A stretch of DNA of 18,763 nt from a virus (taxonomy: Duplodnaviria > Heunggongvirae > Uroviricota > Caudoviricetes): positions 1 to 18,763 of IMG/VR virus record IMGVR_UViG_2617270943_000005. One strand, 5' to 3'. The translations under genes and the position numbers were made by a program. Every line of letters begins with the position of its first letter. The stretch's first letter is position 1. This document shows positions 1,837-18,763 of this stretch, one piece after another. The notes below the pieces were generated by a model. The model was not told the DNA's origin. It did no database searches and worked only from the letters and a program-made list of their open reading frames with translations.

Positions 1837-1856
1837 CGAAGACCATTAGGTCTTCG
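1837..1856. terminator. Bidirectional hairpin terminator between the convergent portal fragment and RT
   Basis: CGAAGACC (1837..1844), loop ATTA, GGTCTTCG (1849..1856): perfect 8-bp stem flanked by AAAA upstream and CTTTATTT downstream, so there is a U-run after the stem on both strands. The RT stop codon (1846..1848) lies in the loop. Confidence 0.6.
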
Positions 1857-2808
1857 CTTTATTTAAAGGGTTCTTTCCATATTTTTTTTCTAATTTGCTA
1901 ATATAAGTTATTAATCTTCTATGGCTTTTTGAATCCACACTTAAAATAAATGACAACCATCCCCTAACGTGTTCTATCTCAGAAGACTTACCGCAAAATA
2001 TATGATGTATCTTTGCTCTAATTTCTTTATATTTTTCTCTACCTATCCCAACTTTCTCTTGTGAAATAACTAAACCTGTAACTTTCCTCTGACTACGAGG
2101 CCCACTAATACAAGTTTTTTTTGAGTTAATAACCAATCCTTCACTTGGGATTATAGAAAATAAAAAATCACGTGCTTTAACAACCTTTTTCATAGACTGT
2201 GCAGATAAGGTGAGATCATCGGCATATCTCGTATATATCAAGCCCCGACTACCTGCATAGCCCTGAATACGATAATCAAGTTTAGAACATATTAGATTAG
2301 CTAATTTAGGTGATGATGGAGCACCTTGTGGTAGCAGATTTTTATAACAACATATTTTTGTCAAAACTGAAGATATTAGTCGATTATAACCAAGAGAATG
2401 GAACACTCCAAAAACTTTGTTAGCAGTTAAACTTGGGAAAAAATCCTCCAAATCAATATTCAGTATAAAGTTTGCCCCAATATGCGGGGTAGCATTATTC
2501 AAAATAGATTGGTGCTTTTCAAATCCAATAGAAAAAGGAGATGACGACAGTTTATCTAAAATGTTACGTAGAACCCATCCTTGTAAGGCTTTAAGTTCTC
2601 GAGAAGGTTGGTAAATGGTTCTCATTCTCTTCTCTGGGCCTTTCTTTTCTACAGTGTAGATCCTATAGCGAAAATCAGCTGTATAGATTAACAACCGAAG
2701 TGTTTCAACAGATATGCGAGTCGCCTTAGACATGTCATGCAAATTGTTCATGACAGGTAGGCCGAGATTTCTCAATCTAAAAGTGTTCAAATATTCAGCG
2801 GATTTCAT
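1846..2808 (-). CDS. ret: Retron reverse transcriptase (320 aa); recognised from memory as the retron Ec86 / Retron-Eco1 RT
   Basis: RT motifs in the translation: LPQGAPSSP, YADD (RYADDLTLS) and the retron-typical VTG (QRKVTGLVIS). ATG at 2808..2806 lies 7 nt downstream of the msr-msd 3' inverted repeat. Length and N-terminus MKSAEYLNTFRLRNLGLPVM match my recollection of the Ec86 RT. Confidence 0.93.
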   Translation of the reverse strand: MKSAEYLNTFRLRNLGLPVMNNLHDMSKATRISVETLRLLIYTADFRYRIYTVEKKGPEKRMRTIYQPSRELKALQGWVLRNILDKLSSSPFSIGFEKHQSILNNATPHIGANFILNIDLEDFFPSLTANKVFGVFHSLGYNRLISSVLTKICCYKNLLPQGAPSSPKLANLICSKLDYRIQGYAGSRGLIYTRYADDLTLSAQSMKKVVKARDFLFSIIPSEGLVINSKKTCISGPRSQRKVTGLVISQEKVGIGREKYKEIRAKIHHIFCGKSSEIEHVRGWLSFILSVDSKSHRRLITYISKLEKKYGKNPLNKAKT

Positions 2809-2814
2809 GAAAGT

Positions 2815-2984
2815 TGCGCACCCTTACGTCAGAAAAAACGGGTTTCCTGGTTGGCTCGGAGAGCATCAGGCGATGCTCTCCGTTCCAACAAGGAAAACAG
2901 ACAGTAACTCAGATTCAATGCAGGATGCCGAAACAACATCCAGAGGTTGACCTTAATGATAAACCTCTCGCTAAGGGTGCGCAT
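2815..2984 (-). ncRNA. msr-msd: Retron msr-msd non-coding RNA (template/primer for msDNA), Ec86-type
   Basis: Minus strand reads ATGCGCACCCTTAGCGAGAGGTTTATCATTAAGGTCAACCTCTGGATGTTGTTTCGGCATCCTGCATTGAATCTGAGTTACTGTCTGTTTTCCTTGTTGGAACGGAGAGCATCGCCTGATGCTCTCCGAGCCAACCAGGAAACCCGTTTTTTCTGACGTAAGGGTGCGCA. Perfect 12-bp a1/a2 inverted repeats at 2972..2983 and 2815..2826; long msd hairpin with an 11-bp tip stem at 2857..2882. Matches the Ec86 ncRNA as I recall it from retron-editing constructs. Confidence 0.9.
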
Positions 2985-3894
2985 ACGGAATCTTATCATA
3001 GTTAAATGTTGATTTTCTACGGTTTTCAAAATTCATAATCTCAAGCCGCAATCGGTCAAGTGTCTTTCTATCAAAGACGCTCCTAACATAGCTAGCCCCC
3101 AAAGCAGTGACCTGATAACCATCAGTCATTTGAAGTATTTTTCGTTCATTTATTAGACGAGAAACAACGGATCTAACAATAATTTTAGATAAAACATCAT
3201 CTTGCTTTATCGCTTTAAAAGCTAGTTCACACAGTGTGCGGTAGTTGACACTATCCAGTAAATAGATACAAGGCAATAGAAACCGCTCTGCGTATAATAT
3301 ATTTCCAATATCTTTTGATACTTTATTTTCTTTCCTAACCTGCTTAATAGATGCCATTAATTTTTTATATAATCGTAATTTTCTGGCAACATCAATAGAT
3401 GAATCACACATTTCTTTTAGTTCATTTGAACTACAACGCAAAACAGATTTTGAATTAAACTTACGCAACAAGCGAACAGGACCATAGTTAATAAAGCTAC
3501 GTTTTGATTTAAATTTTGCATCTTGAATGCAAATCAACTTTCTCCTTAAGTTTTCATTATTAGAGAACGCACCAAGCTCTGTGAAAGACCCCGGACTTTC
3601 AGGAAATAAAATTATTACATCGACAGCTTCAGCCAGAATATTTTCTAAACTTAAAAGGCTATGCTGCCCTTGACCAGCCAAAAGATCATCAAATAGATCT
3701 TCTGGATAAAATATATCAACATCACTGAACTTTGCTAAAAATTGTGATAATTGATGACGCCAAGATTGATGATTAGCAACGTCACCACCACATAGAAAAA
3801 TGGTTATTTTAATATTAGCTCCTCGATAGAAGCCTTTCTTTGTGAGATGTCCTATAAGCTGTTGTTGCTGCTCATCGGTAAATTTTTTATTCAT
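2971..3894 (-). CDS. Retron effector, nucleoside 2-deoxyribosyltransferase (NDT)-like protein with C-terminal extension (about 307 aa)
   Basis: Same strand as, and immediately upstream of, msr-msd and ret. NDT-like features: ANIKITIFLCGGD and VDVIILFPESPGSFTELGAF (candidate catalytic Glu in a DxGxxFExG-like context). Start chosen at ATG 3894..3892 because of the SD GGGGAGA 5 nt upstream; the six-frame ORF extends to 4026 but that N-terminal extension crosses a GC-rich non-coding-looking patch. Stop TAG at 2973..2971 lies inside the msr a1 repeat. Confidence 0.82.
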   Translation of the reverse strand: MNKKFTDEQQQQLIGHLTKKGFYRGANIKITIFLCGGDVANHQSWRHQLSQFLAKFSDVDIFYPEDLFDDLLAGQGQHSLLSLENILAEAVDVIILFPESPGSFTELGAFSNNENLRRKLICIQDAKFKSKRSFINYGPVRLLRKFNSKSVLRCSSNELKEMCDSSIDVARKLRLYKKLMASIKQVRKENKVSKDIGNILYAERFLLPCIYLLDSVNYRTLCELAFKAIKQDDVLSKIIVRSVVSRLINERKILQMTDGYQVTALGASYVRSVFDRKTLDRLRLEIMNFENRRKSTFNYDKIPYAHP

Positions 3895-3966
3895 AATCTC
3901 CCCGCTTTTTTCTACTTTATACATCAAGTTATGAATAGATCCAATCTCCATACCCCATGGCGCGCG

Positions 3967-3985
3967 CTCGTATCCCCGCCACGCC
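3967..3985 (-). other. cos-like motif (possible remnant of P2/186 cohesive-end site)
   Basis: Minus strand 3985..3973 reads GGCGTGGCGGGGA, matching the first 13 nt of the 19-nt P2/186 cohesive end as I recall it (P2 GGCGAGGCGGGGAAAGCAC); it then diverges. It sits in a short GC-rich patch between gene A and the portal fragment, where cos lies in P2. Confidence 0.35.
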
Positions 3986-4237
3986 TGCCCGCTTTGTATA
4001 GCGGTTTTCATGCACTCGCATGGCATAAGGGAAACCTTGCCAGAACTGGCGACCCTCAGCGAAAACGATCTTCAAACGATCATGCGGATTCATGCAGCAT
4101 AGACAGGCACTACTGAGCAATAGCGCTTGAGTTCAGTCAGATATGAGTCCTCAATGTAATACTAATACATCTTAACCGTTCATCATTATTCACATCGGGC
4201 TATGTAATTACAGAAAAACTTTTCACAATCAATTTTA

Positions 4238-4266: not shown

Positions 4267-4305
4267 TCATGACGCATGCAAATTGACATTAATTCAGGAG
4301 ACAAA

Positions 4306-5217
4306 ATGACATTAATTGTAGCTGGTTTCGAAAAAGATGGAACAATTGTTTTTTGCGGGGACTCACTAATAACAACAAAAGCAAATGGAAGCACTGTAAA
4401 ATTGACATCGTCCTTCAGAAAAATAATACCACTAGAAATTATTGTGCGAGTACCGGAAATCGATCCAAGTGGAAAAATCATAAATTACATTGAAAGCCTT
4501 TGCCAACATCGCTGCATGATTGCATTTGCAGGAAGCACGCTAGTTTCTCAACATATTATAAATTCTATACAAGGTCATCTGAAACAAATAAAATACACAT
4601 ATGATTCTGGCACATATGACTATTCAGAAGGATGCATAAAGGGTGCTGGCTATAAGTTAATAATGGGTTGTGAAGATAACAAAAGCGTTGAGGAAACCTA
4701 TTGGAACGAAGATATGTTTGTTGAGCCAGTAAAGAATGCGAACGAACTTATTAATAAAAATTTTCTACGCAACGTCTTTAGCCACTGCATACAGAAAACC
4801 ATGAATGAATTTTACATTAATATTAATGAGGAATTTAATCCAGAGTGGTTTGCAAGCGATTTCATTGTAGCTCTGTCTTGCTATGAGACTAAAAAAAACC
4901 ATCTTTTTACCTTTAAAATGGAATTTAATGAGTCAGGGGTCAATCTTATAGAAAAAGAAATTAATATCAATGAACTGGCAATAATTGGCATTTCAAGATA
5001 TAGCGAAGAAATAATTCAAGCATATCAAACTCAAAAAGCGACCCTCAGTACATCTGAAATTCTCAGCCAAGAGATTACTAAAGCAATCATAGACAATGAA
5101 AGCATTGATCTTAGAGAAATAGGAGATCCTGTCGTATTAAAAAAATTCAATCAACATCGTGAATTACGTGATGAGCAAAAACACTGGAGGTGCAATACTC
5201 CTCGAGAAAACCAATAA
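4306..5217 (+). CDS. Hypothetical protein (303 aa), AT-rich cargo gene in the old/tin-equivalent hotspot; possible Ntn-hydrolase (HslV/proteasome-like) N-terminal domain
   Basis: Long ORF with SD AGGAG (4296..4300) 5 nt before ATG 4306. N-terminus MTLIVAGFEKDGTIVFCGDSLITTKANGSTVKL... has Thr at position 2 and a pattern reminiscent of HslV ([23 protein letters not shown]...K). Codon usage is distinct from the neighbouring phage genes. Family assignment is tentative. Confidence 0.75.
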   Translation: MTLIVAGFEKDGTIVFCGDSLITTKANGSTVKLTSSFRKIIPLEIIVRVPEIDPSGKIINYIESLCQHRCMIAFAGSTLVSQHIINSIQGHLKQIKYTYDSGTYDYSEGCIKGAGYKLIMGCEDNKSVEETYWNEDMFVEPVKNANELINKNFLRNVFSHCIQKTMNEFYININEEFNPEWFASDFIVALSCYETKKNHLFTFKMEFNESGVNLIEKEININELAIIGISRYSEEIIQAYQTQKATLSTSEILSQEITKAIIDNESIDLREIGDPVVLKKFNQHRELRDEQKHWRCNTPRENQ

Positions 5218-5631: not shown

Positions 5632-8073
5632 TTAATACAGGTTCCGCCACTTATCATCTTCCTGCAAACGCTGGTTCCGATAGAAGATTCGCAGGCCTGC
5701 TCCTGACGGAATGCTGCCGCCGCGAAGGAGTAAATCGACCTCTTTCTCGCTGCCATCAAATCCTCTGGACTTCAGTTCATACACGAGCTGCAGTCGCTGA
5801 TGGTCTGTAATTCGCTGTTTGTAGTCTTTACGACGTTTCGGTTTAACCAGGCGTAACCTTGCTACCAGTTCCCGGCGCTCTTTTTTGCTCAGACTGTGCA
5901 GGTATTCGTGCAACTCTTTGTCATCCATGCGGGTGATATCCGTTCTGGTATCCCCATCAGCTGATTTGTTTTTCTCCTGTTGGTTCAAATTTTCAGCAAG
6001 GGGACAGTTATTGCCACGAGTCCAAGGGGCGCAAGCGCCCTGGTCGGCTGCCGCCTCCTGAACGTCAACGGCCTTACGAACCATTTTCCACTTCACTGCA
6101 TGAGTGCAGATCTTGCCCTCTGCAATGGGTGACCAGATGCCATAAATACGAATACCGTGATCGCCATAGGCGGTTGGCTCTTCGTTGATTTCATAAGCGG
6201 TTCTGATGAGGTGATATTTGCGGGGAACCAGTACGCCGCCCTGCTTCATGATGTAGGTGGCAAAACAACCAGCATCAGCAGCAGCCAGGATGGCATCAAG
6301 GCGCGGGTTATCCAGTACCGGCGCACCTGCTTTTTTGTCACCCTGTTGCCTTGCCGCCTGACCAGCCAGCAATCGCAGTTCACGGTAAGCCTGACGCCCC
6401 GGAATGCCAAAGAAGCGGAATTGCTGAACACGATGCAGAGACGCCCAGGCATTAACGTATTCAGCGTTATCACACAGGGATTTCCCCGTTTCCTTACTGA
6501 TCTCGCCAGCCAGACCACGTCCGTCAATATTCTTACTGATATATTTCGCAATGTAGCTTGTCGGCGTTCCTTTGCGCGGGTTTATCAGCTCAGACTTAAA
6601 GCGTGGCCCCGTGTTATTGCCCAGCTCCTCGCGGTCTTCACGGATGGCAAACTTACGCAACAATGCAGTAATGGCGCGGCGGTCTTTTTTGCGCATGAAA
6701 CACAACAGGTGCCAGTGAACTGTGCCGTCATGATGCGGCTCAGCCACCCGCACGCCATACCAGCGCAACCCGGCTTTGTGCATAGCCTTACGAAATGCAG
6801 CAAACATGCCGACCAGATAATCACTGCTTTGTCTTACTGTCGCGTTGGTCCAGGTCGGGTTTGGCCTGCCGTTATTTAGCGTGGAATGGAAACGTGACGG
6901 ACAGGTGATGGTGTAGAAAACGGCGCAGTCACCGCGCATTTCCGCGATAAGCTCCAGACCTTTAACACAGGCCATCATCTCATTGCGGCGATGCGCAGGG
7001 TTGCTGCTGCTGGCGTTTACCACATCCTCCATGTCCAGCGTGTCGCCGTCTTCGTTCACCAGTTCATGAGAACGAAAAAACTCCAGCGACTTACGGCGCT
7101 GCTCACGTTTATGCATCACGGCTTCATAGCTGACATAGGGAGATGCTTTTTTGCTGACCAGGCAAACAGCACGCAACTGCTCTTCCCGCCATTCGCAACG
7201 CATCTTCCATAATTTCCGGTACCACCAGTCGGCGCACAACATACGCGCCAGCGAACCCGGAATGAGTTCATAGGGCACGGGTTTACGGCGGTTTCTTTTC
7301 CGGCGGAGTTGCTCAAACGCAGGCGGGATGACATCCAGACGCAGGGTTTCCGCTGCCATCTTTTCCCATGTCTTGCGGATTTCTTCTGGCTTAACGTCAT
7401 CGGTGACATACAAATCGCCACAAGCTGCATCAAGGCACATGCTCATATGCGCAGCGACAAGGGTAGACAAACGTTTCACCTGATCCTGACTCATTTCAGG
7501 CAGGATCAGCAGGCCGTCCAGCCCTTCATGGCTTGCCATAAAGCGAAAAGAAGTGGATAGCTGACTGTCGCGTACATGCTCCAGTCGTTCCAGACATGGC
7601 TTAATCGTCTCACGCAAATAGCGGGAATAAGCCTTTGGCCTGCCCAGGCTGCTGAAGTATTCAATACGTTGCATCAGCGGCTTGCTGATATGGGAAGGCT
7701 GGGCATTGACGTCCGCCAGAATGACCATATCTGGATTAAAACGCTGCTGCTCATGCGCCAGCTTTGCCCGGCTAATGAGCTTATCCTGCTCCATTTCGCG
7801 TTGGACAGGATCACGGGATTCATTAAAGAAATAACGCTCCCAGACCTGATCACTCAGTGCCTCGCGGCGCAGTTGTTCCTGCTCGTTATCGGCAGCGTAC
7901 AGAGTGATCAGGTTTGAAAGCGCAGAAATCGGCGCAACTTCCGCCGGGTCCAGATAAGGGTTAATGGCTTTCTTAGGTAAATTCCACGAATAACCCCCGG
8001 CAGAATTCTCAATGCTACCGGAAGTTACACTGACAAATGGATCGGCAAGACGGCCTGTGCTGATCTCTGTCAC
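5632..8073 (-). CDS. A: Phage replication initiation endonuclease (P2 gpA family), 813 aa
   Basis: Large ORF whose translation I recognise as the P2/186 replication protein A family. GTG start at 8073..8071 overlaps the TGA stop of the upstream gene (GTGA); SD AGGAG 7 nt upstream. Confidence 0.88.
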
Positions 8074-9080
8074 TCACAGACTCCTGCATATACACTGCTG
8101 CACACCGCTTTATCATTCATGCCTGCCAGCAGGTCAAACTGCATACCGCCCCGAGTCGTTAAGGCCCAGTCCCGATAAGTTTCAATGCCATAAGCATCAA
8201 CAGTTATGACTTCGATCCGTTTTTCAGCACGGCGCGGATCATGCGTGGATGGAAAGAACGTTGAATTGCCATGTCTTGAACATTCCGCAACCAGTCTTTC
8301 CCACTCAGCCACTCGGCGGATTTCTTCTGGCCAGCGTTGGAAAATCTCAGCAAGTTCTGACTTGCGAGCATGAATACATGGCATACAACCGACACGACTG
8401 CATCCCTGCATATAAAGGGGGTTAGGCTTAATGCCATGACGTTTGGCAATAGCAAACACATCCTCATGCAGCCAATTAAGGATCGGACGATAAACATGCA
8501 GGCCCAGAGTATTGTCTGCATCGTCCTCCCACTCAGGCAACAATGCACGTTCCGGTGATTCCTGCCCCCGGACTCCTTGCCAGCTGATTACCTCATCGTA
8601 TTTATCCAGAGCCGGATCGATTACCTGTGTACGTATTGGTTCATGTTTCAGTTCAAAAGTGCAGAAACGAGCTTTTGTTGAAGGGAAGCGACCTTTCCAC
8701 ATGCACAAATCAAGAAACGGAACGCCGGTTGGTTTAAGGATTTCCAGTGCCCGGTAAATACGTTCCTCAGCCTCATCTGTCGACATACCACATTCCTCAA
8801 CGAGAGAAATGGGCCACTTTTCCGCAATGAATTTACGTTTCCCTTCTATCTGGCGTGTGAAATCCGCTTTGACGCGAATAATCTTGCCCAGCTTTGATTC
8901 CAGATAATCCAGATATTCTATTGTCTGTGGATGTTCATGACCCGTATCGGCAAATACAGAAATATGCGGAACATCGTTTTCAATGGCTCTTAGCCATTGA
9001 GCGAGACTATCTTTGCCACCAGAAGTAGTGATGATGTTAATGGTGCTTGAGGCAAAGCAACGCGGATCGATAGCATTCAT
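8070..9080 (-). CDS. Phosphoadenosine-phosphosulfate (PAPS) reductase-like family protein, 336 aa
   Basis: N-terminal ITTSGGKDS is the PP-loop (SGGxDS) typical of PAPS reductase / ATP-pyrophosphatase-fold proteins; ATG 9080 overlaps the dam stop (ATGA); SD GAGG present. Confidence 0.8.
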
Positions 9081-9925
9081 GAGCGTACCTCAACGGTACG
9101 GTCAGAGCCGCTGGCAAAATCGACACCAAACCACCCAGCTGATTTGGTGGCAATGATTTCTGCTGCAGATTTACTCTCGCCAGCTGACACGCCGATGCTG
9201 CGTTTTGCCTTGATGTAGTAGTGAGTGAAATTGCGATACAGCGAACGAATCAGGGATGTGTCACTGTTAGAAACAATGACCGGATGACCTTCAGATGATC
9301 GATGTTCAAGAACGGATGCCAGGTGATACTGGTCATCTTCAGTGAAGCCATCAGTGTGATAGCCGGAAAACGTACCGTCATAAGGCGGATCGCAATACAC
9401 CACATCCCCCGCCTTCAACATCGCCAGCGTTTCATCAAAGCTGGCGCAGATAAACGTTGCCCGCTGGGCTTTCTCTGCAAATGCGCGAATTTCTTTTTCA
9501 GGGAAATACGGATTTTTATAATTACCGTAGGGAATGTTGAAATACCCGCTCTTGTTATAGCGACATAACCCACGATAACCATGACGATTGAGATACAGAA
9601 AATATACCGCTTTCATGAAATCAGTAATTTCAGTGGAGTAATTAAACTCCTGCCTTATGTTGTAATAAGCCACCTCCCTGTTTGCTTCCTCAAATAAAGC
9701 TCTGGCACGAGATATAAACGCCTCACAATCAGCAGCAACCTTTTTATAGAGGTTGATTAAATCAGGATTAATATCCGCAACAAGATAGCTGGGGTAATCC
9801 GTCTCCATCATCACTGCACAGGAACCCGCGAAAGGTTCAACCAGTCGCGGGCCAGCAGGAAGATGCTTTTTCAGTTCGGACATTATGGCGGTTTTATTTC
9901 CCGCCCATTTCAGGATGGTGCTCAT
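9077..9925 (-). CDS. dam: DNA N6-adenine methyltransferase (Dam family), 282 aa
   Basis: Motifs [16 protein letters not shown] and DPPY (VYCDPPYDG). Start chosen at ATG 9925 (SD GGAGG; overlaps the stop of the upstream gene, ATGA) rather than the longer six-frame ORF starting at 9985. Confidence 0.88.
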
Positions 9926-10149
9926 ACAGCACCTCCGTTGTAATGTTTGCCTTTCAGCTCTGCGATTTCCTGACAGGTAATGCAAAGCTGCACACCCGGA
10001 ATGGCACGACGGCGTGCTGGCGGAATTGGCGCTTCACACTCAACGCAAAGCACGCGGGACACGCCCGGCGTTTTGGCACGGGCAGCACGGATATGACGTT
10101 GGCGTTCTTCTTCAACTCGCTGCTGTACGAGATCCATTGCATCAGCCAT
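9922..10149 (-). CDS. TraR/DksA-family C4 zinc-finger protein, 75 aa
   Basis: CVEC-x17-CITC four-cysteine finger in a 75-aa protein, typical of small phage TraR/DksA-like proteins; start overlaps the upstream stop (TGATG). Confidence 0.82.
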   Translation of the reverse strand: MADAMDLVQQRVEEERQRHIRAARAKTPGVSRVLCVECEAPIPPARRRAIPGVQLCITCQEIAELKGKHYNGGAV

Positions 10150-10962: not shown

Positions 10963-11472
10963 TCACAGCAAACCGAATGAAGCACCGAGGCCAGTCACGG
11001 TATCAACCGCACTCGCCATCGCAGGATTAGCCTGTAAACGGGCCTGCAATGAAACAGCAGCCAGCGCCATCAGTCGTGTAACAGAGTTAATGCTGCTGAT
11101 AGCATCACGACGACCGGCACAGGTTTTTACCTCGCCAGATACCGCACCTGCAGCAACACGCCCGATCTCTGCGGTTGCACTCATGACGTAATGTGGCAGT
11201 TTCTCTTTTGCCACCTCATTAATCGGTACACATGGTAGGCAGTGAATCTGTGCCAGAAAACCATCTATCAGCGTTGAATCTTCAGTCAGATCGGTAAGCA
11301 GCCAGATTTCTGGCGCATTGAGCTGATGCGGTTGATCTGGGTTGAGTTTGTTTCGCAGTGTCTGGACATTCATTCCTGCACGTTCTGCCAGCTTCGCCAT
11401 ATTGTGACGAAGTGCAAAAGCTCTACAGGCTTCATCAAAATGCGGGTGTTTGGAAATCTTATAATCAAACAT
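10963..11472 (-). CDS. cII: Phage CII-like transcriptional activator (186 CII family), 169 aa
   Basis: 169-aa protein MFDYKISKHPHFDEACRAFALRHNMAKLAERAGMNVQTLRNKLNP... matches the length and N-terminal HTH region of coliphage 186 CII as I recall it; second gene of the rightward-type operon after the apl/cox-like gene. Confidence 0.8.
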   Translation of the reverse strand: MFDYKISKHPHFDEACRAFALRHNMAKLAERAGMNVQTLRNKLNPDQPHQLNAPEIWLLTDLTEDSTLIDGFLAQIHCLPCVPINEVAKEKLPHYVMSATAEIGRVAAGAVSGEVKTCAGRRDAISSINSVTRLMALAAVSLQARLQANPAMASAVDTVTGLGASFGLL

Positions 11473-11504: not shown

Positions 11505-11747
11505 TTACTTACCAACAATGACGCGGAAGTTGGAATGACCGAGGGATTCACGGACCTGATCGGTTTTGTACATTAAATAACGCAGGCTTACGCGGCCTTT
11601 GTTTTTTTCCTTCTTGACCATGTATTTAGCAAGCTGACCATGGTGAATTTTTTGATACACAGAGCCGCGGGAGATACCTTCCCATTCAGCGAACTCAGCA
11701 GGCGTTGCCATCTCTTTTGGTACACGAATTGAAATATCAGTACTCAT
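11505..11747 (-). CDS. Cox/Apl-like small DNA-binding protein (excisionase/repressor), 80 aa
   Basis: First gene of the operon divergent from cI-int; small basic protein; position identical to apl in 186 and cox in P2. Confidence 0.6.
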   Translation of the reverse strand: MSTDISIRVPKEMATPAEFAEWEGISRGSVYQKIHHGQLAKYMVKKEKNKGRVSLRYLMYKTDQVRESLGHSNFRVIVGK

Positions 11748-11868: not shown

Positions 11869-12501
11869 ATGTTAAACATCAGAATGGGTTCCGATACGGG
11901 AGGTAAAGCAGCTATTGAGAGGCTGCTTGCGGCTTATGGATTTACAACTAAGCAGGCATTAAGCGAGCACCTGAATGTCTCAAAAAGCACTATGGCGAAC
12001 AGAGTGTTACGTGACAGTTTTCCTGCTGACTGGATAATTCAGTGCGCACTAGAAACCGGTGTTTCGTTGCTTTGGTTAGCTACAGGACAGGGAAGCATGA
12101 AAGGAGGAAGTGAGCCTGAAAAAAGATCTCACAATGAGAACAAACAAGCAATTAAACCGTTATCCAAACTCATAACTCCATCTATTCCTAAAGGAACCTT
12201 GGAGAATGGACAACTCAGTATTGATGAAGAGATTTTCTTAGACCACAGCATATTACCTGCAGATTATGAAGAATCGATGTTCTTAGAAACCCCTACTGAT
12301 TGTTATCTCATCGATAAATCAGTTAAACAAGTCAGCAATGGATTCTGGCTTATCAATATTGATGGAATGATTATTATTGCAAAAATCATGCGGATTCCCG
12401 GCAATAAGATTGTAGTAAATCAAGATGAAGCGTCTTTCGAGTGCTCTGCTGATGATGTGGAAGTTATTGGGCGTGCAGTCAAAGTAATAAAGAGTATCTA
12501 A
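11869..12501 (+). CDS. cI: Phage CI-like repressor (186 CI family), 210 aa
   Basis: N-terminal HTH region (TTKQALSEHLNVSKSTMANRVLRD) and two-domain architecture like 186 CI; directly upstream of, and coupled to, int; divergent from the apl/cII operon. Confidence 0.8.
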   Translation: MLNIRMGSDTGGKAAIERLLAAYGFTTKQALSEHLNVSKSTMANRVLRDSFPADWIIQCALETGVSLLWLATGQGSMKGGSEPEKRSHNENKQAIKPLSKLITPSIPKGTLENGQLSIDEEIFLDHSILPADYEESMFLETPTDCYLIDKSVKQVSNGFWLINIDGMIIIAKIMRIPGNKIVVNQDEASFECSADDVEVIGRAVKVIKSI

Positions 12502-12503
12502 AC

Positions 12504-13520
12504 ATGACTGTCAGAAAACAGCCAAACGGTAAATGGTTGTGCGAGTGCTATCCCAATGGACGCAATGGCAAGCGCGTGCGTAAGCAATTTGCTACGAAAG
12601 GCGAAGCCATTGCTTTTGAAAGCTTCACAATGGCAGAAGTGAACAAAAAACCATGGCTGGGGGAAAAGGAAGATCGGCGACACCTATCAGAATTAATTGA
12701 GCAGTGGTATTCCCTATATGGTCAAACACTCGCAGACCCCAAGCGCCTCATGGCGAAACTTAGAATTATCTGTAATGGTCTGGGCGATCCCATCGCCTCA
12801 GAACTGACAGCCGGTGACTTTACGAAATACCGCGAAGCACGGTTAAAAGGCGAAGTGCGAAATGAAGATGGCACGCTTATGTCGCCCGTTAAGCCCCGCA
12901 CGGTAAACCTTGAACAGCGCAATCTATCATCGGTGTTCGGTACATTAAAAAAACTAGGACACTGGTCAGCACCAAACCCGCTGGCAGGACTTCCAACCTT
13001 CAAAATTGCTGAAGGTGAGCTGGCTTTTCTTTCCGCGGACGAAATCAAACGCCTATTGGTTGCCTGCGCAGATTCCCAGAGCCCCAGCCTTCTTATGATT
13101 GCAAAAATATGCCTGGCCACCGGCGCACGCTGGAGTGAAGCCGAAAACCTGCAGGGCCATCAGTTATCCAAATACCGCATCACTTATACCAAGACGAAGG
13201 GCAAGAAAAACCGTACCGTGCCGATATCTCAGGATCTGTACAACGAACTTCCCAAAAACAGAGGGAAGTTATTCACGCCATGCAGAAAAGCCTTTGAGCG
13301 AGCAGTAAAGCGGGCCGGTATCGTTCTACCTGAGGGACAATGTACTCATGTGTTACGCCATACATTCGCCAGCCACTTCATGATGAATGGAGGAAATATA
13401 CTGGTTCTCAAAGAAATTCTGGGGCATGCCGATATAAAGATGACAATGGCTTACGCTCATTTTTCTCCTGACCATTTGGAAGATGCCGTCCTGAAAAATC
13501 CTTTAACTAATTTAAGGTAA
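12504..13520 (+). CDS. int: Tyrosine integrase (P2/186 Int family), 338 aa
   Basis: Catalytic signature ATGARWSE ... HVLRHTFAS ... LGHADIKMTMAYAH (R, H-x-x-R, Y); size typical of P2 Int. Confidence 0.92.
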   Translation: MTVRKQPNGKWLCECYPNGRNGKRVRKQFATKGEAIAFESFTMAEVNKKPWLGEKEDRRHLSELIEQWYSLYGQTLADPKRLMAKLRIICNGLGDPIASELTAGDFTKYREARLKGEVRNEDGTLMSPVKPRTVNLEQRNLSSVFGTLKKLGHWSAPNPLAGLPTFKIAEGELAFLSADEIKRLLVACADSQSPSLLMIAKICLATGARWSEAENLQGHQLSKYRITYTKTKGKKNRTVPISQDLYNELPKNRGKLFTPCRKAFERAVKRAGIVLPEGQCTHVLRHTFASHFMMNGGNILVLKEILGHADIKMTMAYAHFSPDHLEDAVLKNPLTNLR

Positions 13521-13527
13521 TAGTTCA

Positions 13528-14766
13528 ATGGTTATTGAAACTAAAAGCAAAAAAATATCAAAAGTTGCGTTAAAAAGGCTTTTTAACACTATTTTAAAAA
13601 AATCCTCAATTCGTCCTCCTATAGAAGTTGGCAAAAATAATGACCTAATTACTGATTTCTCTGCAAAATGTGAAAAATTTAAAGATTGCCTGAAAGAATA
13701 CATAGAAAACAATAATGATGATATCTTAGCAAGAAGAGTTAAGAGCAGATTAAAAGTTATTGAGTCCGTGCAAGAAGGCATAATAAATTGTTTGGAATGC
13801 TTTCTTTCCGGAGATATCAAGTCAGCGTATGATTCTTTTGAGGAAATGCTTGAGCCAGATTTTGTATCAAGGCATATTAAAAATATTTGCATACCTTTAT
13901 CTGAAAAGTGTGGTAATAACAAGCGTCTATTTAGAGTCAGGAAATCCGAACGCCCTTTATCAACAAGAAAAGATATCTTTCATATTCCTTTCAATCAGCG
14001 CCATCTGGTTAGTGCACAACGCTACTCAGTTGCAGGTCTTCCGTGCCTTTATTTAGGAACTTCATTGTATATCTGCTGGCGAGAAATGGACAAACCCGAT
14101 TTTGATAAGTTATATATATCATCATTTACCACTAGCTCAGAGAATAATGAATCGCTACTATTAGATTTTAGTGCTGATTTCCTTTATAAAACGAAGCTAT
14201 TCTTTACATCTAAAAAAGAACATTCTTCAGCAAAAGAGCTTTCTTCGGTCACAATGTTATCATACCTCGCATTATGGCCTTTAATAATCGCATGCAATTA
14301 TTTAAAAAAACATAGCAATGCATCTTTCATTCAGGAATATATAATACCAAACTTACTTATGCAGTGGATAAGCAGGGATATTAACGATTACAACATTGTT
14401 GGAATTGCTTATCGTTCAACAAAACTACCTGCAAATGCTGATAGTGAGAGAGGGGTCAATGTCGTTCTTCCTCCAAAAATTCGTTACGAAGACATGAAGG
14501 TTAACGAATTCTGCCCAGAACTCTCCGGCTTATTTCACTGTACCCCACCAGTATCATGGCAGGTTCTAAAAACTCTTGAATATGTACCATTGCGTCAATC
14601 CTTCTCAGATAGAGAGATATTGAGTGACGAGCTCAGGAACAAAAAGCTCTGGGATATAATGGGCAATCTTGATGATGAAATTTTGAGCATTTATAAATTA
14701 TCTGACTTTTACAAGCTTGAAGTTTGTATGGATGAAATCCAAGTCCATAACGACATAAACACATAA
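13528..14766 (+). CDS. RES-domain-like protein (412 aa), AT-rich cargo between int and the right att repeat
   Basis: Segment RLFRVRKSERP...QRYSVAGLPCLYLGTSLYICWRE fits the RES-domain pattern (Arg ... G-x-P-x-LY-x-x-S ... E). Strong compositional shift to AT-rich immediately after the int stop. Confidence 0.65.
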   Translation: MVIETKSKKISKVALKRLFNTILKKSSIRPPIEVGKNNDLITDFSAKCEKFKDCLKEYIENNNDDILARRVKSRLKVIESVQEGIINCLECFLSGDIKSAYDSFEEMLEPDFVSRHIKNICIPLSEKCGNNKRLFRVRKSERPLSTRKDIFHIPFNQRHLVSAQRYSVAGLPCLYLGTSLYICWREMDKPDFDKLYISSFTTSSENNESLLLDFSADFLYKTKLFFTSKKEHSSAKELSSVTMLSYLALWPLIIACNYLKKHSNASFIQEYIIPNLLMQWISRDINDYNIVGIAYRSTKLPANADSERGVNVVLPPKIRYEDMKVNEFCPELSGLFHCTPPVSWQVLKTLEYVPLRQSFSDREILSDELRNKKLWDIMGNLDDEILSIYKLSDFYKLEVCMDEIQVHNDINT

Positions 14767-14883
14767 AAATTGGCGACAATTTGGCGGCAAATCATTAAAA
14801 ATACTTAAAACAACTAAACACAGCAAAACACTAACATACTGTTTTTAATGATAAATGCATGATTTCATTATAATTAAAATGGT

Positions 14884-14921
14884 ATGTAGGAATTTCGGAC
14901 GCGGGTTCAACTCCCGCCAGC
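14884..14921 (+). repeat. Right copy of 38-bp direct repeat (att site; duplicated ssrA 3' segment without the CCA end)
   Basis: Identical to 1016..1053; followed by CGATTGGACG instead of the tmRNA 3' end. Confidence 0.85.
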
Positions 14922-15043
14922 GATTGGACGGTGTAAGGACAACACTAACAAAAACAGGAAGTTAGAAGTCTCAGCAAGACACCGACCAGACGGTGAGGAG
15001 ATATAAAAGGATACGCAAAGGAGCCGCGGCTCCTGGTGATATG

Positions 15044-15076: not shown

Positions 15077-18000
15077 TCAGAACGACCAGTTCACACCAGC
15101 CACCGCGTTCCACGGGGATTCCACACCGGCACCATGGCTATACCCCACCCCGAGATGCCCGCTTAACGAACTGCTGAATGAGGCTTTAATACCTGCCTGG
15201 TATATTCCACGTCTGCCCGACAAATCATTGACAAAATTACCGTCATTATTCACTTTCACCCGGTTATCATCGACAAATTCTTTGCGCACAGCCGCCTTCA
15301 GCCACGGCTCAACTTCCATGCCGTTCCCCAGACGCATGTTGTAACTCAGCGTTGCGCCCAGTTCACGATATATACTGCGAGTATCGACTGATTTCGATTC
15401 CATACCATTGGATAAATGATATTCGGGGTTATCAGCGGTGAACCCCGTTAAAGATGCATACGGCGTCAGGTTCCAGTTACCATCGGTAAATCGCATCCCG
15501 GTTTCAATGTGACCGCCCAGCCCGTTGCTGCGATAACTGCCGTTGGCGGCTCCACCGCTGCTCATTTTACCGGCTACGTTACTTTCAAAGCGGTTCAGCT
15601 TCACGATACCGTCCAGATAGAAACCACTTTCATGTTCCCAGCTGACATAGCCCCCCAGAGAATAACTGCCCACACTGCCATGTCCTCCACGATCAAAACC
15701 GATATGTGAATGGGAATAACCCATAAAAGCGCCCAGCGTCGCAATCCCCTCAGGAATACCATTACGGCTATCGATCCCCACCGTCATTCCGGTCAGCGTC
15801 TGCTCAAACCCGGCACCCGCATCGGTGGTGACATTATTACGGGTGTTATACGTCGTCCCCCAGACATTATTGTTGTGTGGACTCGCTTTCATTATGTTCA
15901 ACCGCTCGCGAATACTGTTTAGCTCAGCATCAAAGACCAACGGTAATGTTGCTGCCATATTGAGTACGGCTGCCGTAGAAGGCGTGATGCGTTTCTCCGG
16001 GACGGGTGTCGGCGTTGGATCGGGAGTCGGGTCTGGTTTCGGATCCGGTTTTGGGTCTGGTTTTGGATCCGGTTTCGGATTTGGGTTGGGGTCCGGGTTG
16101 GGTTTGACATCATTGGTCAGGTTCCAGTTGCTGTTGCCGTCGCTTTTCAGGACATACTCATAGGTCCCAAGATCAACGAAACCGCCGGTATTACCCAGCG
16201 TAAACGAAGCATCCCCTCCCCCTGTTTTCACCAGCGTCATCGCGTCGTCAGACTGAGGGCTGACGCCGGTATCCTGAACAAAGATTTTAAAATTGCCAGT
16301 GGCGTTGTTGTTGACGACCAGTTGATCGCCCCGGGAGCCTGCAACGTTGGTATGCAGGTAGAAATTACCGCTGCCGGAAAGTTCACTGGTGGTCAGCGTA
16401 TTGTAGATACCGTTAGTTGTGGCAGGCGCTGCTGTTTGTGCTGATAAATAAACATCACCGTCGTTGAGGAGCAAACTGTTTACTCTATATTCGCAGTTGC
16501 TGGTGCCTGCACAGGAATTATTGCTGTTAAGCCAGACACTGCCCCGGCTGGCAGCCGTCAGGTCGGCAAGCGTCGTATCGACGCCATTTCCGATAGTTAA
16601 TGTCGCGCTATCGGTAATCCGGACCACCCCTTCAAGTTTAACTGGCGTAACATTATCCCGTGGCGTCATTAACGACAGGCTTCCTGTCGCGCCACTGACC
16701 GATGCATCCGCCAGCGTACCTGCGTAGACGATTGCCGTCCCGCCAGCGACCTGTAGATCTTCTGCCCGGGCCAGAGCCTGAAACTCATCTTTTGACCGAC
16801 CAAGGGTATATTGCCCACCGGAATTAACCTTTGTGGCGAAGTCCTGACCCAGGTTTTGCATTGCCCCACCGTTGCCAACCGTGGAATCGCGAGCTTCGGT
16901 ACCTGCTAATACCAATAAATTACCGCCATTTTCCAGCAGCACATTGGTCGCTAAATTTCCGGCAATGGAAAAGGTGCCGTACTGGTGAGTACCGCTGATT
17001 TCAATACCGTTAGCCGTGCTCGTCTGGAGAGCGGCACCGCTGTTCTGGATGATATCTGTCGCTTTGCCATTATCGTTGACTGTCAGCGTACCGCCTTCAT
17101 TAATCGTTGTTTTTACTGCCTCACCGTTAGCCGAAACTGTTTGTATTCCGCCGTCGTTAATCGTTGTCTCATTCGCCACACCCTCGACGATTTGTTCACC
17201 GCCGGTAAGCATCGTGCCAGTCGCAGTGGCTTTTGTTTTGACGATCTCCCGTCCGCCCGCATTGACCTGTGTTTTGGCGGAAGTGGTGTCTGACTCCACG
17301 GTTAACACGCCGCCATTTGCCAGCAGGATATTGTTCGCCGCATCCTGCTCGATGCTGAACGCGACGCCATCAGCGCGTGTCCCTGTGACCCGCGTCGCCC
17401 TGGTGGTTGCCACCAACGCGCCCTGGCTACTCTGCTGTATCCCCGTAGCGCTGCCTTTCTCCCGCACATCGAGTGTGCCGCCGTCATTAAGTACCGAGTT
17501 TTCAGCCAGACCGCCCTCATTAACTACCTGTGAACCGCCATTAATAATGGAACCTTCCGCTGTCCCGTTTGCCATAATTTGTTGTAGGCCAGAGGCGATA
17601 TCGGTATTGATCGCCTTACCATAATTCTGAACGGTTTGCGTGCCGCCTTTGATGTGCGTTTTATCTGTTGACCCACCATCAACAATTTGTTCACCACTTT
17701 CGATATTTGCCTCAGTGGCTAAACCATATACCGTTTGCTTGCCACCTTTGATATTTGCTTTATCAGAAGTGGCACTGGCATATATTGTTTGGGTGCCCGC
17801 ACTATTGAGTACAGTGCCAACATCTTTTCCATAAACATCCATTTTGCCGTTGGCATTAATAATCGTATCAACTGCCCGGGAACCAGTAACGACTGTTAAT
17901 GAGCCAGCGTTTTCCAGCACTACATTTTTAGCTTCTGAATTCCTGATGTAGAAAGCATCACCATAACTGTTGGTTCCTTCGATAAGTGTTCCGGAAGTCG

Positions 18001-18763
18001 TGGAAGCAATTAATGCGCCGCCGGATTGTTGCTCAACATGCTTAGCCTCACCACCGTCCTGAACCTCCAGAACGCCACCATTATTAAGTCTGGTGGTATC
18101 TGTTTTAGCCTCCTTCTGGACAATCAGCTTACCGCCAGCATCAACGGTAGTATTTTTCGCCGTGGTTTTAGCCACTACCGTCAGTTCGCCGGTATTTTCC
18201 AGCACAACATAATTAGCCTCCCCTCCGGTAATAGTGAAGTGAGAGAGCTTGTTGTATCCTTCAATATCAGTCCCTGCGCCCGTGTTGGCAACTAAAGCAC
18301 TGCCCGTCTCCTGGTTAACCCCATGTGCGATACCACCGGTATAGACAATCAGCGAGCCTCCGGTGCTAATATTGCTGCCAGTTGCCGTACCATCTTTCTC
18401 AACAACCTGCCGGCTCCCGGAGGAGATATTTGTCGTGTCAGCTTTCCCGCCGCTCTTGATATTTTGTGTTCCGCTGTTGATATTGGTTCCCGTGGCAATA
18501 CCATGATTATTTATATTCTGTGTGCCACCATTAATGATGGTATTTGTCGCGTTTCCGGCAACATCCATAACGCCGCCATTATCTATTCGGGTCGCATCAG
18601 CTTTAGCATTCGTTAAAACTGACATTGTTCCGTTATCTTTAATAATCGTCTTATTTGCCGAACCATATACGTCTAAATGACCACCGTTTTCCAGCAACAC
18701 ATTGTCTGCCACGTTATTGTGAATAGAGAATGCCCCTTCACTATTCGTACCGCTCACCGTCGA
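15077..18763 (-). CDS. Autotransporter adhesin (AIDA-I/Ag43-type; YpjA-like by position), partial; N-terminus beyond window
   Basis: ORF open to the window end. Repetitive passenger with G/N/T-rich beta-helix-like repeats, a Pro-rich linker (PNPDPNPNPKPDPKPDP...) and a C-terminal beta-barrel ending ...GVNWSF (terminal aromatic). Confidence 0.85.
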   Translation of the reverse strand, partial: STVSGTNSEGAFSIHNNVADNVLLENGGHLDVYGSANKTIIKDNGTMSVLTNAKADATRIDNGGVMDVAGNATNTIINGGTQNINNHGIATGTNINSGTQNIKSGGKADTTNISSGSRQVVEKDGTATGSNISTGGSLIVYTGGIAHGVNQETGSALVANTGAGTDIEGYNKLSHFTITGGEANYVVLENTGELTVVAKTTAKNTTVDAGGKLIVQKEAKTDTTRLNNGGVLEVQDGGEAKHVEQQSGGALIASTTSGTLIEGTNSYGDAFYIRNSEAKNVVLENAGSLTVVTGSRAVDTIINANGKMDVYGKDVGTVLNSAGTQTIYASATSDKANIKGGKQTVYGLATEANIESGEQIVDGGSTDKTHIKGGTQTVQNYGKAINTDIASGLQQIMANGTAEGSIINGGSQVVNEGGLAENSVLNDGGTLDVREKGSATGIQQSSQGALVATTRATRVTGTRADGVAFSIEQDAANNILLANGGVLTVESDTTSAKTQVNAGGREIVKTKATATGTMLTGGEQIVEGVANETTINDGGIQTVSANGEAVKTTINEGGTLTVNDNGKATDIIQNSGAALQTSTANGIEISGTHQYGTFSIAGNLATNVLLENGGNLLVLAGTEARDSTVGNGGAMQNLGQDFATKVNSGGQYTLGRSKDEFQALARAEDLQVAGGTAIVYAGTLADASVSGATGSLSLMTPRDNVTPVKLEGVVRITDSATLTIGNGVDTTLADLTAASRGSVWLNSNNSCAGTSNCEYRVNSLLLNDGDVYLSAQTAAPATTNGIYNTLTTSELSGSGNFYLHTNVAGSRGDQLVVNNNATGNFKIFVQDTGVSPQSDDAMTLVKTGGGDASFTLGNTGGFVDLGTYEYVLKSDGNSNWNLTNDVKPNPDPNPNPKPDPKPDPKPDPKPDPTPDPTPTPVPEKRITPSTAAVLNMAATLPLVFDAELNSIRERLNIMKASPHNNNVWGTTYNTRNNVTTDAGAGFEQTLTGMTVGIDSRNGIPEGIATLGAFMGYSHSHIGFDRGGHGSVGSYSLGGYVSWEHESGFYLDGIVKLNRFESNVAGKMSSGGAANGSYRSNGLGGHIETGMRFTDGNWNLTPYASLTGFTADNPEYHLSNGMESKSVDTRSIYRELGATLSYNMRLGNGMEVEPWLKAAVRKEFVDDNRVKVNNDGNFVNDLSGRRGIYQAGIKASFSSSLSGHLGVGYSHGAGVESPWNAVAGVNWSF
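16000..16105. repeat. Tandem 12-nt repeats encoding the (K/T)PDP linker of the autotransporter
   Basis: GGATCCGGTTTT / GGGTCTGGTTTT / GGATCCGGTTTC-type units; the other frames give artefactual GSGFGSG and RIRNQT ORFs. Confidence 0.6.

Follow-up and report, generated by a model that had tools for sequence, protein, structure and literature searches.

A gene carried as cargo between the integrase gene and the attachment (att) site of a prophage raises two questions, namely which enzyme it encodes and whether this enzyme could work alone. We addressed them in a window of 18,763 nt (the whole stretch of DNA analysed, i.e., the Caudoviricetes record IMGVR_UViG_2617270943_000005 of IMG/VR), in which a 412-aa open reading frame (ORF) with an ATG start (13528–14766 including the stop, + strand, taken from the ORF list and its translation) follows the integrase gene int of a prophage remnant. 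An initial annotation, made from the bare sequence, described the product as RES-domain-like. Our results indicate that this cargo gene encodes a standalone, divergent RES-domain protein: the window protein is a strongly diverged RES domain with a conserved catalytic set, belonging to the ADP-ribosyltransferase (ART) superfamily. We favour, if only with modest confidence, the view that it is a prophage-borne single-polypeptide anti-phage effector, which would act by RES-based depletion of nicotinamide adenine dinucleotide (NAD+).

A strongly diverged RES domain in a partner-less protein

The window protein has 351 homologues of ~400 aa each, and an exhaustive profile search gave 2,674 related clusters at 50% identity, with members mostly 350–420 aa long. 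Sixty-one diverse relatives, 24–44% identical to the window protein, were sampled for Pfam searches and conservation analysis. The RES profile PF08808 was matched by 43 of these 61 distant members at E ≤ 1, always in the same central region, and one of them (P0260) scored above the gathering score (24.5 versus 23.2 bits). Moreover, profile alignments with hhalign related the family to aRES, a group of standalone RES proteins with antiphage activity (Osterman et al., bioRxiv January 2026, doi 10.64898/2026.01.28.702374). The family profile aligned with the aRES RES domain (3 sequences) with a probability of 89.9% and with full-length aRES (35 sequences) with 88.2%, and the alignment of domain versus domain reached 94.1% (E 1.3e-7). 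E-values between the family and the aRES RES domain ranged from 1e-7 to 3e-6, and the negative controls gave probabilities of 0.1–3.4%. The RES identity put forward initially is thus upheld by the PF08808 matches of the relatives, by the hhalign probabilities of 88–94% and by the pairing of the catalytic residues with those of aRES.

Indeed, the RES motif quoted in the initial annotation is present in the window protein (R136-V-R138, Q164-R165-Y-S167, G170-L-P172-C-L-Y175-L-G-T-S179 and E186), and its residues are invariant or almost invariant in the 61 relatives, far beyond chance. In the hhalign alignment, R136 and R138 correspond to R182 and R184 of aRES UC5, R165 to R215, G170 to G220, Y175 to Y225, S179 to S229, E186 to E236, S297 to S334 (the ‘S’ of R-E-S) and N311 to N349. 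R138, R165, Y175 and E186 are conserved in all 61 relatives, and R136, S179, S297 and N311 in 54–58 of them (S297 in 54, with Thr in five more, and N311 in 58). The R, E and S of the domain name are R165, E186 and S297, and R138, Y175 and N311 form the R-Y-N triad given as typical of the RES clade (Iyer et al. 2022, PMC9503650). In addition, the AlphaFold2 (AF2) model of the window protein is confident overall (predicted template modelling score, pTM, of 0.81), and we regard the three-dimensional RES/ART fold as shown. We infer from these likenesses that the RES core would cleave NAD+.

The domain is larger than first proposed. The segment initially assigned to it (residues ~130–190) covers its first half only, and an end near residue 190 is wrong since the domain reaches residue ~325 (with S297 and N311), past an insertion at ~201–245. 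Because the RES domain spans ~126–325 with this insertion, the C-terminal extension measures ~90 aa and not 220 aa, and the N-terminal one ~125 aa where 130 aa had been claimed. The protein, encoded on the + strand, begins with an all-helical N-terminal domain (aa 1–125; 13528–13902), a candidate sensor or autoinhibitory module with AF2 helices at residues 3–23, 40–61, 65–93, 97–108 and 111–119 (predicted local distance difference test, pLDDT, of 80–97). Its invariant G95 lies within a (Y/F)LxGxxxxAY motif; a Cys cluster is absent, and zero Pfam matches were obtained. The first half of the RES core (aa 126–200; 13903–14127) contains R136/R138, R165, G170, P172, Y175, S179 and E186, and is the stretch most conserved at the DNA level among Escherichia coli genomes. 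It is followed by the variable insertion inside the RES domain (aa 201–245; 14128–14262), which is gapped in the aRES alignment and has a pLDDT below 50 at residues 225–235, by the second half of the core (aa 246–325; 14263–14502, with E270, S297-T298 and N311) and by the helical C-terminal extension (aa 326–412; 14503–14763). The latter has invariant Y389 and F394 and AF2 helices at 344–349, 359–373, 381–391 and 393–404, with lower pLDDT. Pairwise comparisons among Enterobacterales gave mean identities of 0.78 (first catalytic half), 0.63 (second catalytic half), 0.51 (C-terminal region), 0.42 (N-terminal domain) and 0.31 (insertion), the last being the lowest of all. The flanking regions hence evolve faster than the core, which is the pattern expected for an effector core equipped with sensor, recognition or regulatory modules.

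Two further statements of the initial annotation agree with our data, i.e., that the protein is larger than typical RES toxins (412 aa versus 144–250 aa) and that no Xre-like partner adjoins it. Its homologues are not consistently paired with an antitoxin either. In the window, the only ORFs flanking the cargo gene are an antisense ORF of 136 aa (13512–13922, − strand, TTG start) and an internal one of 75 aa. A comparable antisense ORF was seen in only two RES-carrying loci of related phages (L101, 162 aa; L125, 85 aa), so that the antisense ORF of the window is probably spurious. At a larger scale, we compared 80 homologue loci from Gammaproteobacteria, Bacteroidota, Bacillota and other phyla, in which an all-against-all BLAST of the three neighbours on each side revealed no conserved neighbour family and no conserved partner gene; the largest neighbour cluster, found at 5 of the 80 loci, consists of integrases. 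The immediate neighbours identifiable with Pfam vary widely (103 families among 108 proteins): integrases are the most frequent, with six proteins, and transposases, helicases, a type III restriction subunit, BrxA, GmrSD and an McrBC-associated domain account for one to three proteins each, next to housekeeping-type genes. Overall, most family members lie in bacterial chromosomes and adjoin integrases, transposases and defence-type genes. Pfam found a helix-turn-helix (HTH) domain in only 2 of the 74 small same-strand flanking ORFs, and no antitoxin domain of the Xre/COG5642 type was seen around family members. The conservation of the ~400-aa architecture across phyla suggests that the control of the enzyme is intramolecular.

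Expression, proposed role and competing explanations

The cargo gene starts 7 nt after the int stop and is preceded by an AAGG Shine-Dalgarno-like element at 13515–13518. As first described, it is the single long ORF of this segment and has the same orientation as cI-int. The abrupt change to AT-rich DNA just after int, reaching the right att repeat, was also correctly noticed: the GC content is ~0.50 inside int (0.49–0.51), 0.32–0.39 in every interval of 13400–14999 and 0.47–0.55 beyond 14800. Since a simple consensus scan of the + strand found zero promoter-like or terminator-like sites between 12378 and 15100, read-through from cI-int is the simplest model of expression. The cI repressor gene (11869–12501, + strand; Pfam Phage_CI_repr/Phage_CI_C) and int (12504–13520, + strand; Pfam Int_N/Phage_integrase) probably form a lysogenic transcription unit that is extended by the cargo gene.

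Under the proposal of an anti-phage effector, the cargo gene would close the cI-int unit and be transcribed with it in the lysogen and, no antitoxin gene being present, the enzyme would be held off by its own N-terminal helical domain and/or its C-terminal helices. A component or a consequence of infection by another phage would then lift this inhibition. By homology, the released RES core would cleave NAD+, most likely by phosphorolysis to nicotinamide and ADP-ribose-1''-phosphate as MbcT and aRES do, and the resulting NAD+ depletion would lead to growth arrest and abort the infection, so that the lysogen population, and hence the prophage, would be protected.

Several observations count against this proposal. 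The search of the window protein with PF08808, named in the initial annotation as a check, gave zero matches even at E ≤ 10, as did the whole of Pfam at this threshold (including PF18870). Read literally, this null result would refute the RES idea, which the more sensitive evidence given above supports. Likewise, nothing relevant was found for the window protein with the NCBIfam or PADLOC hidden Markov models (HMMs), and searches of PDB sequences by phmmer and hmmsearch, using the protein and two family profiles, found no RES toxin. The AF2 model is weak beside the active site, with a pLDDT of ~50 at residues 150–170. In addition, yopC of the Bacillus subtilis prophage SPbeta is a member of the family (442 aa; tblastn 29% identity over 68% of the query, E 1e-24) and lies 108 nt downstream of yopB, a 75-aa Cro/C1-type HTH gene (L087:3291–4954). 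As yopC follows this HTH gene, some family members may have a partner. Finally, in P0151 (611 aa) the C-terminal helical region is replaced by a restriction endonuclease domain of the LlaMI/MvaI type (PF09562, E 2.8e-42), and the RES-like part could in such fusions not be the effector. Note that yopB-yopC is the sole Xre-RES-like pairing seen for the family and that none of the small flanking ORFs is related to the YopB HTH protein. Our literature search found no functional study of the family of the window protein or of SPbeta yopC.

Some of these searches also returned matches of other kinds. In PDB, they were limited to designed helical proteins, on the N-terminal helices, which we treated as compositional or coiled-helix noise. 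Foldseek gave zero significant matches against PDB and the BFVD viral models. Among the PHROGs, only ones of ‘unknown function’ were matched, in particular PHROG 7835 (E 9e-161).

An alternative that keeps the catalytic core and changes its substrate is that the RES core is a target-directed ADP-ribosyltransferase similar to ParT, which modifies Prs. Its toxic or defensive effect would then stem from the modification of a host or phage macromolecule and not from a loss of NAD+. We regard such target modification as rather unlikely. The chemistry expected for both aRES and the window family, by analogy, is the conversion of NAD+ to nicotinamide and ADP-ribose-1''-phosphate with growth arrest.

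A second alternative, to which we give a low probability, is that the protein acts as an addiction or stabilisation toxin and thereby retains the prophage or its remnant, the antitoxin being, e.g., a small RNA, a host factor or a very short ORF. Where short RES proteins have been characterised, they are toxins of type II toxin-antitoxin pairs, the gene has been kept in a remnant without morphogenesis genes, and yopB-yopC of SPbeta resembles an HTH-RES pair. However, the 80 loci contain no conserved neighbour ORF of at least 45–60 aa, Xre/COG5642-type domains were not seen, the antisense ORF recurs in two related loci only, and the architecture shared across phyla points to control within the polypeptide.

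We also consider it improbable that the protein serves the cycle of the phage itself or counter-defence, e.g., by acting on host NAD+/ADP-ribose metabolism or signalling during induction or infection. Family members are indeed phage-borne in Peduoviridae and SPbeta, and genes processing NAD+ or ADP-ribose are known in phages (PMC9503650). Nevertheless, the gene is located at the lysogeny end beside cI-int, away from the lytic operons; it is dispensable, its site being empty in Fels-2 and 13 other contigs, and interchanges with unrelated cargo; and the family resides mostly in bacterial chromosomes among mobile-element and defence-type genes. The idea of a non-functional or non-enzymatic remnant, i.e., an AT-rich ORF with a degenerate RES-like fold, would fit the missing matches to curated HMMs and the low reported expression of the LF82 homologue, but is very improbable given the full-length ORF intact in hundreds of relatives, the catalytic positions invariant at such low overall identity and the overall confidence of the AF2 model.

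Comparison with known RES proteins and prophage cargo

The aRES proteins are the closest known counterpart of the proposed anti-phage effector. They are defined as partner-less proteins of 300–600 aa with PF08808 and HEPN_RES_NTD1 (PF18870), and their protection of E. coli relies on the conversion of NAD+ to nicotinamide and ADP-ribose-1''-phosphate, which leads to growth arrest, whereas phages can overcome it using either a Macro-domain phosphatase or aRad1 inhibitors (doi 10.64898/2026.01.28.702374). Like aRES, the window protein is encoded by a single gene without operonic partner, falls within 300–600 aa and has a central RES domain, and both groups occur in Enterobacterales beside mobile-element and defence genes. 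In contrast, aRES and its homologues (~459 aa) all match PF08808 (3.8e-14) and mostly PF18870, and carry the NCBI name ‘RES family NAD+ phosphorylase’, whereas the window family fails the published aRES filter; PF18870 was not among the 25 Pfam families most matched by the 61 relatives at E ≤ 1. Moreover, aRES has an N-terminal CxxC...CxxC motif, absent from the N-terminal domain of the window family with its lack of a Cys cluster, and the window family has an insertion inside the RES domain, unlike aRES. Outside the core, the hhalign probabilities between the two families are those of the negative controls (0.4–1.3% for the N-terminal domains and 0.1% for the C-terminal regions), and only the RES core is shared. 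We had also considered the N-terminal domain as a diverged HEPN_RES_NTD1, a candidate raised by the full-length hhalign alignment, and rejected it since the domain-only probability of 1.1% was no better than that of the controls.

The RES-Xre toxins, e.g., MbcT/Rv1989c (6FKG), NatT (8QNL), Pseudomonas putida Res (9R35), VPA0770 (8GUG) and ParT (6D0H), are single-domain proteins of 144–250 aa that adjoin an Xre/COG5642 antitoxin plugging the active site. The window protein differs from them with its 412 aa, its three regions and the absence of an antitoxin gene, and its similarity to these toxins is below HMMER detection. YopC is prophage-borne like the window protein, belongs to the same family and is labelled ‘RES domain-containing protein’ in RefSeq, but it is encoded by a Firmicute siphovirus, has 442 aa and is preceded by the small HTH gene. 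We therefore regard the window family as a new architectural form within the theme of standalone RES defence, belonging to neither aRES nor RES-Xre.

As a cargo gene, it may be compared with those of the gpA-portal hotspot of P2-like phages, which include old, tin, retrons and PARIS-type systems (Rousset et al. 2022, PMC9122126). Both kinds of cargo are variable, horizontally exchanged and found on P2-like prophages, but the RES gene is located between int and attR/attP and not between the replication gene A and the portal gene Q. This int-attP slot was not described for E. coli P2-like phages by Rousset et al. 2022 (PMC9122126).

The int-attP slot and the prophage remnant

The content of the slot was examined in 80 IMG/VR contigs (L088–L167) whose integrases are 73–95% identical to that of the window, the value being 91–95% for 74 contigs. 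Of the 80, 55 allowed the spacing between the int stop and the att core to be determined; the remaining 25 showed no core downstream of int, in most cases since the contig ended too early. The slot is empty in 13 contigs (145 nt between int and att), as well as in Fels-2 itself. The RES-like family occupies it in 21 contigs according to tblastn, and 18 of these have a full ORF of 395–427 aa, accompanied in two cases by a second cargo gene. The RES-family members of the slot are 37–78% identical to the window protein, although they lie beside integrases that are 91–95% identical. At least four unrelated, unannotated families besides the RES-like one occupy the slot in other contigs, one of them, of ~343–373 aa, being found in 17 contigs. 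Among the remaining cargo are a family of 207–222 aa (four contigs), a 578–584-aa gene on the opposite strand, a 503–513-aa gene and several singletons, and the slot of a Klebsiella Peduovirus contains an unrelated 516-aa protein. Longer variants of 600 and 641 aa and the 516-aa Klebsiella phage cargo gave zero Pfam matches. Since the slot is empty or filled with RES-like or unrelated cargo across related phages, it is a cargo hotspot, and one distinct from the gpA-portal hotspot.

The family of ~343–373 aa is the most frequent alternative cargo and is restricted to Enterobacterales. As an example, it is represented by a 348-aa ORF in L109 (5031–6077, + strand), and it was also detected in L093, L115, L122, L128, L130, L134, L143, L146, L152, L155, L160 and L164. 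The homologues of the 348-aa cargo are all ‘hypothetical’ and have no Pfam domain, and this family is a candidate for another prophage function.

The prevalence of the RES gene in E. coli is low (39 of 5,426 complete genomes, always as a single chromosomal copy annotated as hypothetical), and one Salmonella cluster of the family occurs on at least 1,000 contigs. Standalone RES as a defence effector was already known for another architecture, that of aRES; what is new here is a large family missed by annotation, with flanking domains of a kind of their own, and a cargo hotspot at int-attP. We suggest tentatively, and with slightly less than even confidence, that the window protein is the founding member of a cross-phylum family of ~2,700 clusters of single-protein RES with non-aRES sensors, missed by Pfam, PADLOC and NCBIfam, and that the int-attP slot is an undescribed defence hotspot harbouring at least four further candidate defence families. 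The depletion of NAD+ is coming to be seen as a major theme in bacterial immunity, to which standalone RES (aRES) was added only in 2026. If the present family is active, the set of RES-based defences would be substantially larger than Pfam-based surveys indicate, as its members are nearly always annotated as ‘hypothetical’ and are common in Salmonella prophages. The same catalytic core would then also be known with a second set of regulatory domains, unrelated to the first, which bears on how partner-less toxic NADases are restrained and triggered. Furthermore, the slot is compact and easy to mine, its flanks (int and the ssrA att core) being conserved and its cargo measuring 0–2.5 kb, and it could open a route to further prophage-encoded systems.

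The right att repeat mentioned in the initial annotation is real. An exact 38-nt direct repeat links 1016–1053 (attL, identified by repeat search within the 3′ end of the ssrA gene) to 14884–14921 (the attR core, an exact copy of the ssrA 3′ end, without assigned strand); the ssrA gene, encoding the transfer-messenger RNA, was located by ARAGORN at 698–1060 on the + strand. Between the two repeats lies a ~13.8-kb prophage remnant of the P2/186/Fels-2 type (Peduoviridae). A C-terminal portal fragment (1184–1828) lies only ~130 nt from attL, so that all morphogenesis genes are absent and the prophage is truncated; it has kept its genes for replication and lysogeny together with both cargo sites. 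None of the 5,426 complete E. coli genomes matches across the attL-portal junction (1016–1828).

The classical gpA-portal hotspot of the same remnant is occupied by a type II-A retron (1846–4026, − strand), composed of a reverse transcriptase gene (1846–2808, − strand; PDLC02941, E 7e-128) and an NDT effector gene (2971–4026, − strand; PDLC02930, E 5e-94). A close homologue of this retron is labelled ‘retron St85 family’ by PGAP. Beside it, the hotspot contains a 313-aa ORF (4276–5217, + strand) with zero Pfam or PADLOC matches. The replication gene A (5632–8073) comes next, and two genes on the − strand are found downstream of it. The first (8070–9080) encodes a PAPS-reductase-domain protein with weak similarity to SspD, BrxP and DndC (E 1.5e-23 to 3e-6) and overlaps the start of the second, an orphan methyltransferase of the Dam type (9077–9985). 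Both genes are probably co-transcribed and may constitute a DNA-modification or anti-restriction pair (8070–9985).

The cII (10963–11472) and apl/Rha (11505–11747) genes were named after the PGAP annotation of the collinear region of E. coli SCU-115. The cargo-gene region is 99.3% identical to that of this strain, where PGAP gives ‘hypothetical protein’. In the window, attR is flanked by a gene for an AIDA/Ag43-type autotransporter of 1,226 aa (15077–18757, − strand; AIDA repeats, pertactin and beta-barrel domains). The same prophage end adjoins glaH-lhgO-gabDTP in SCU-115 instead of this autotransporter, and the chromosomal context therefore varies between strains.

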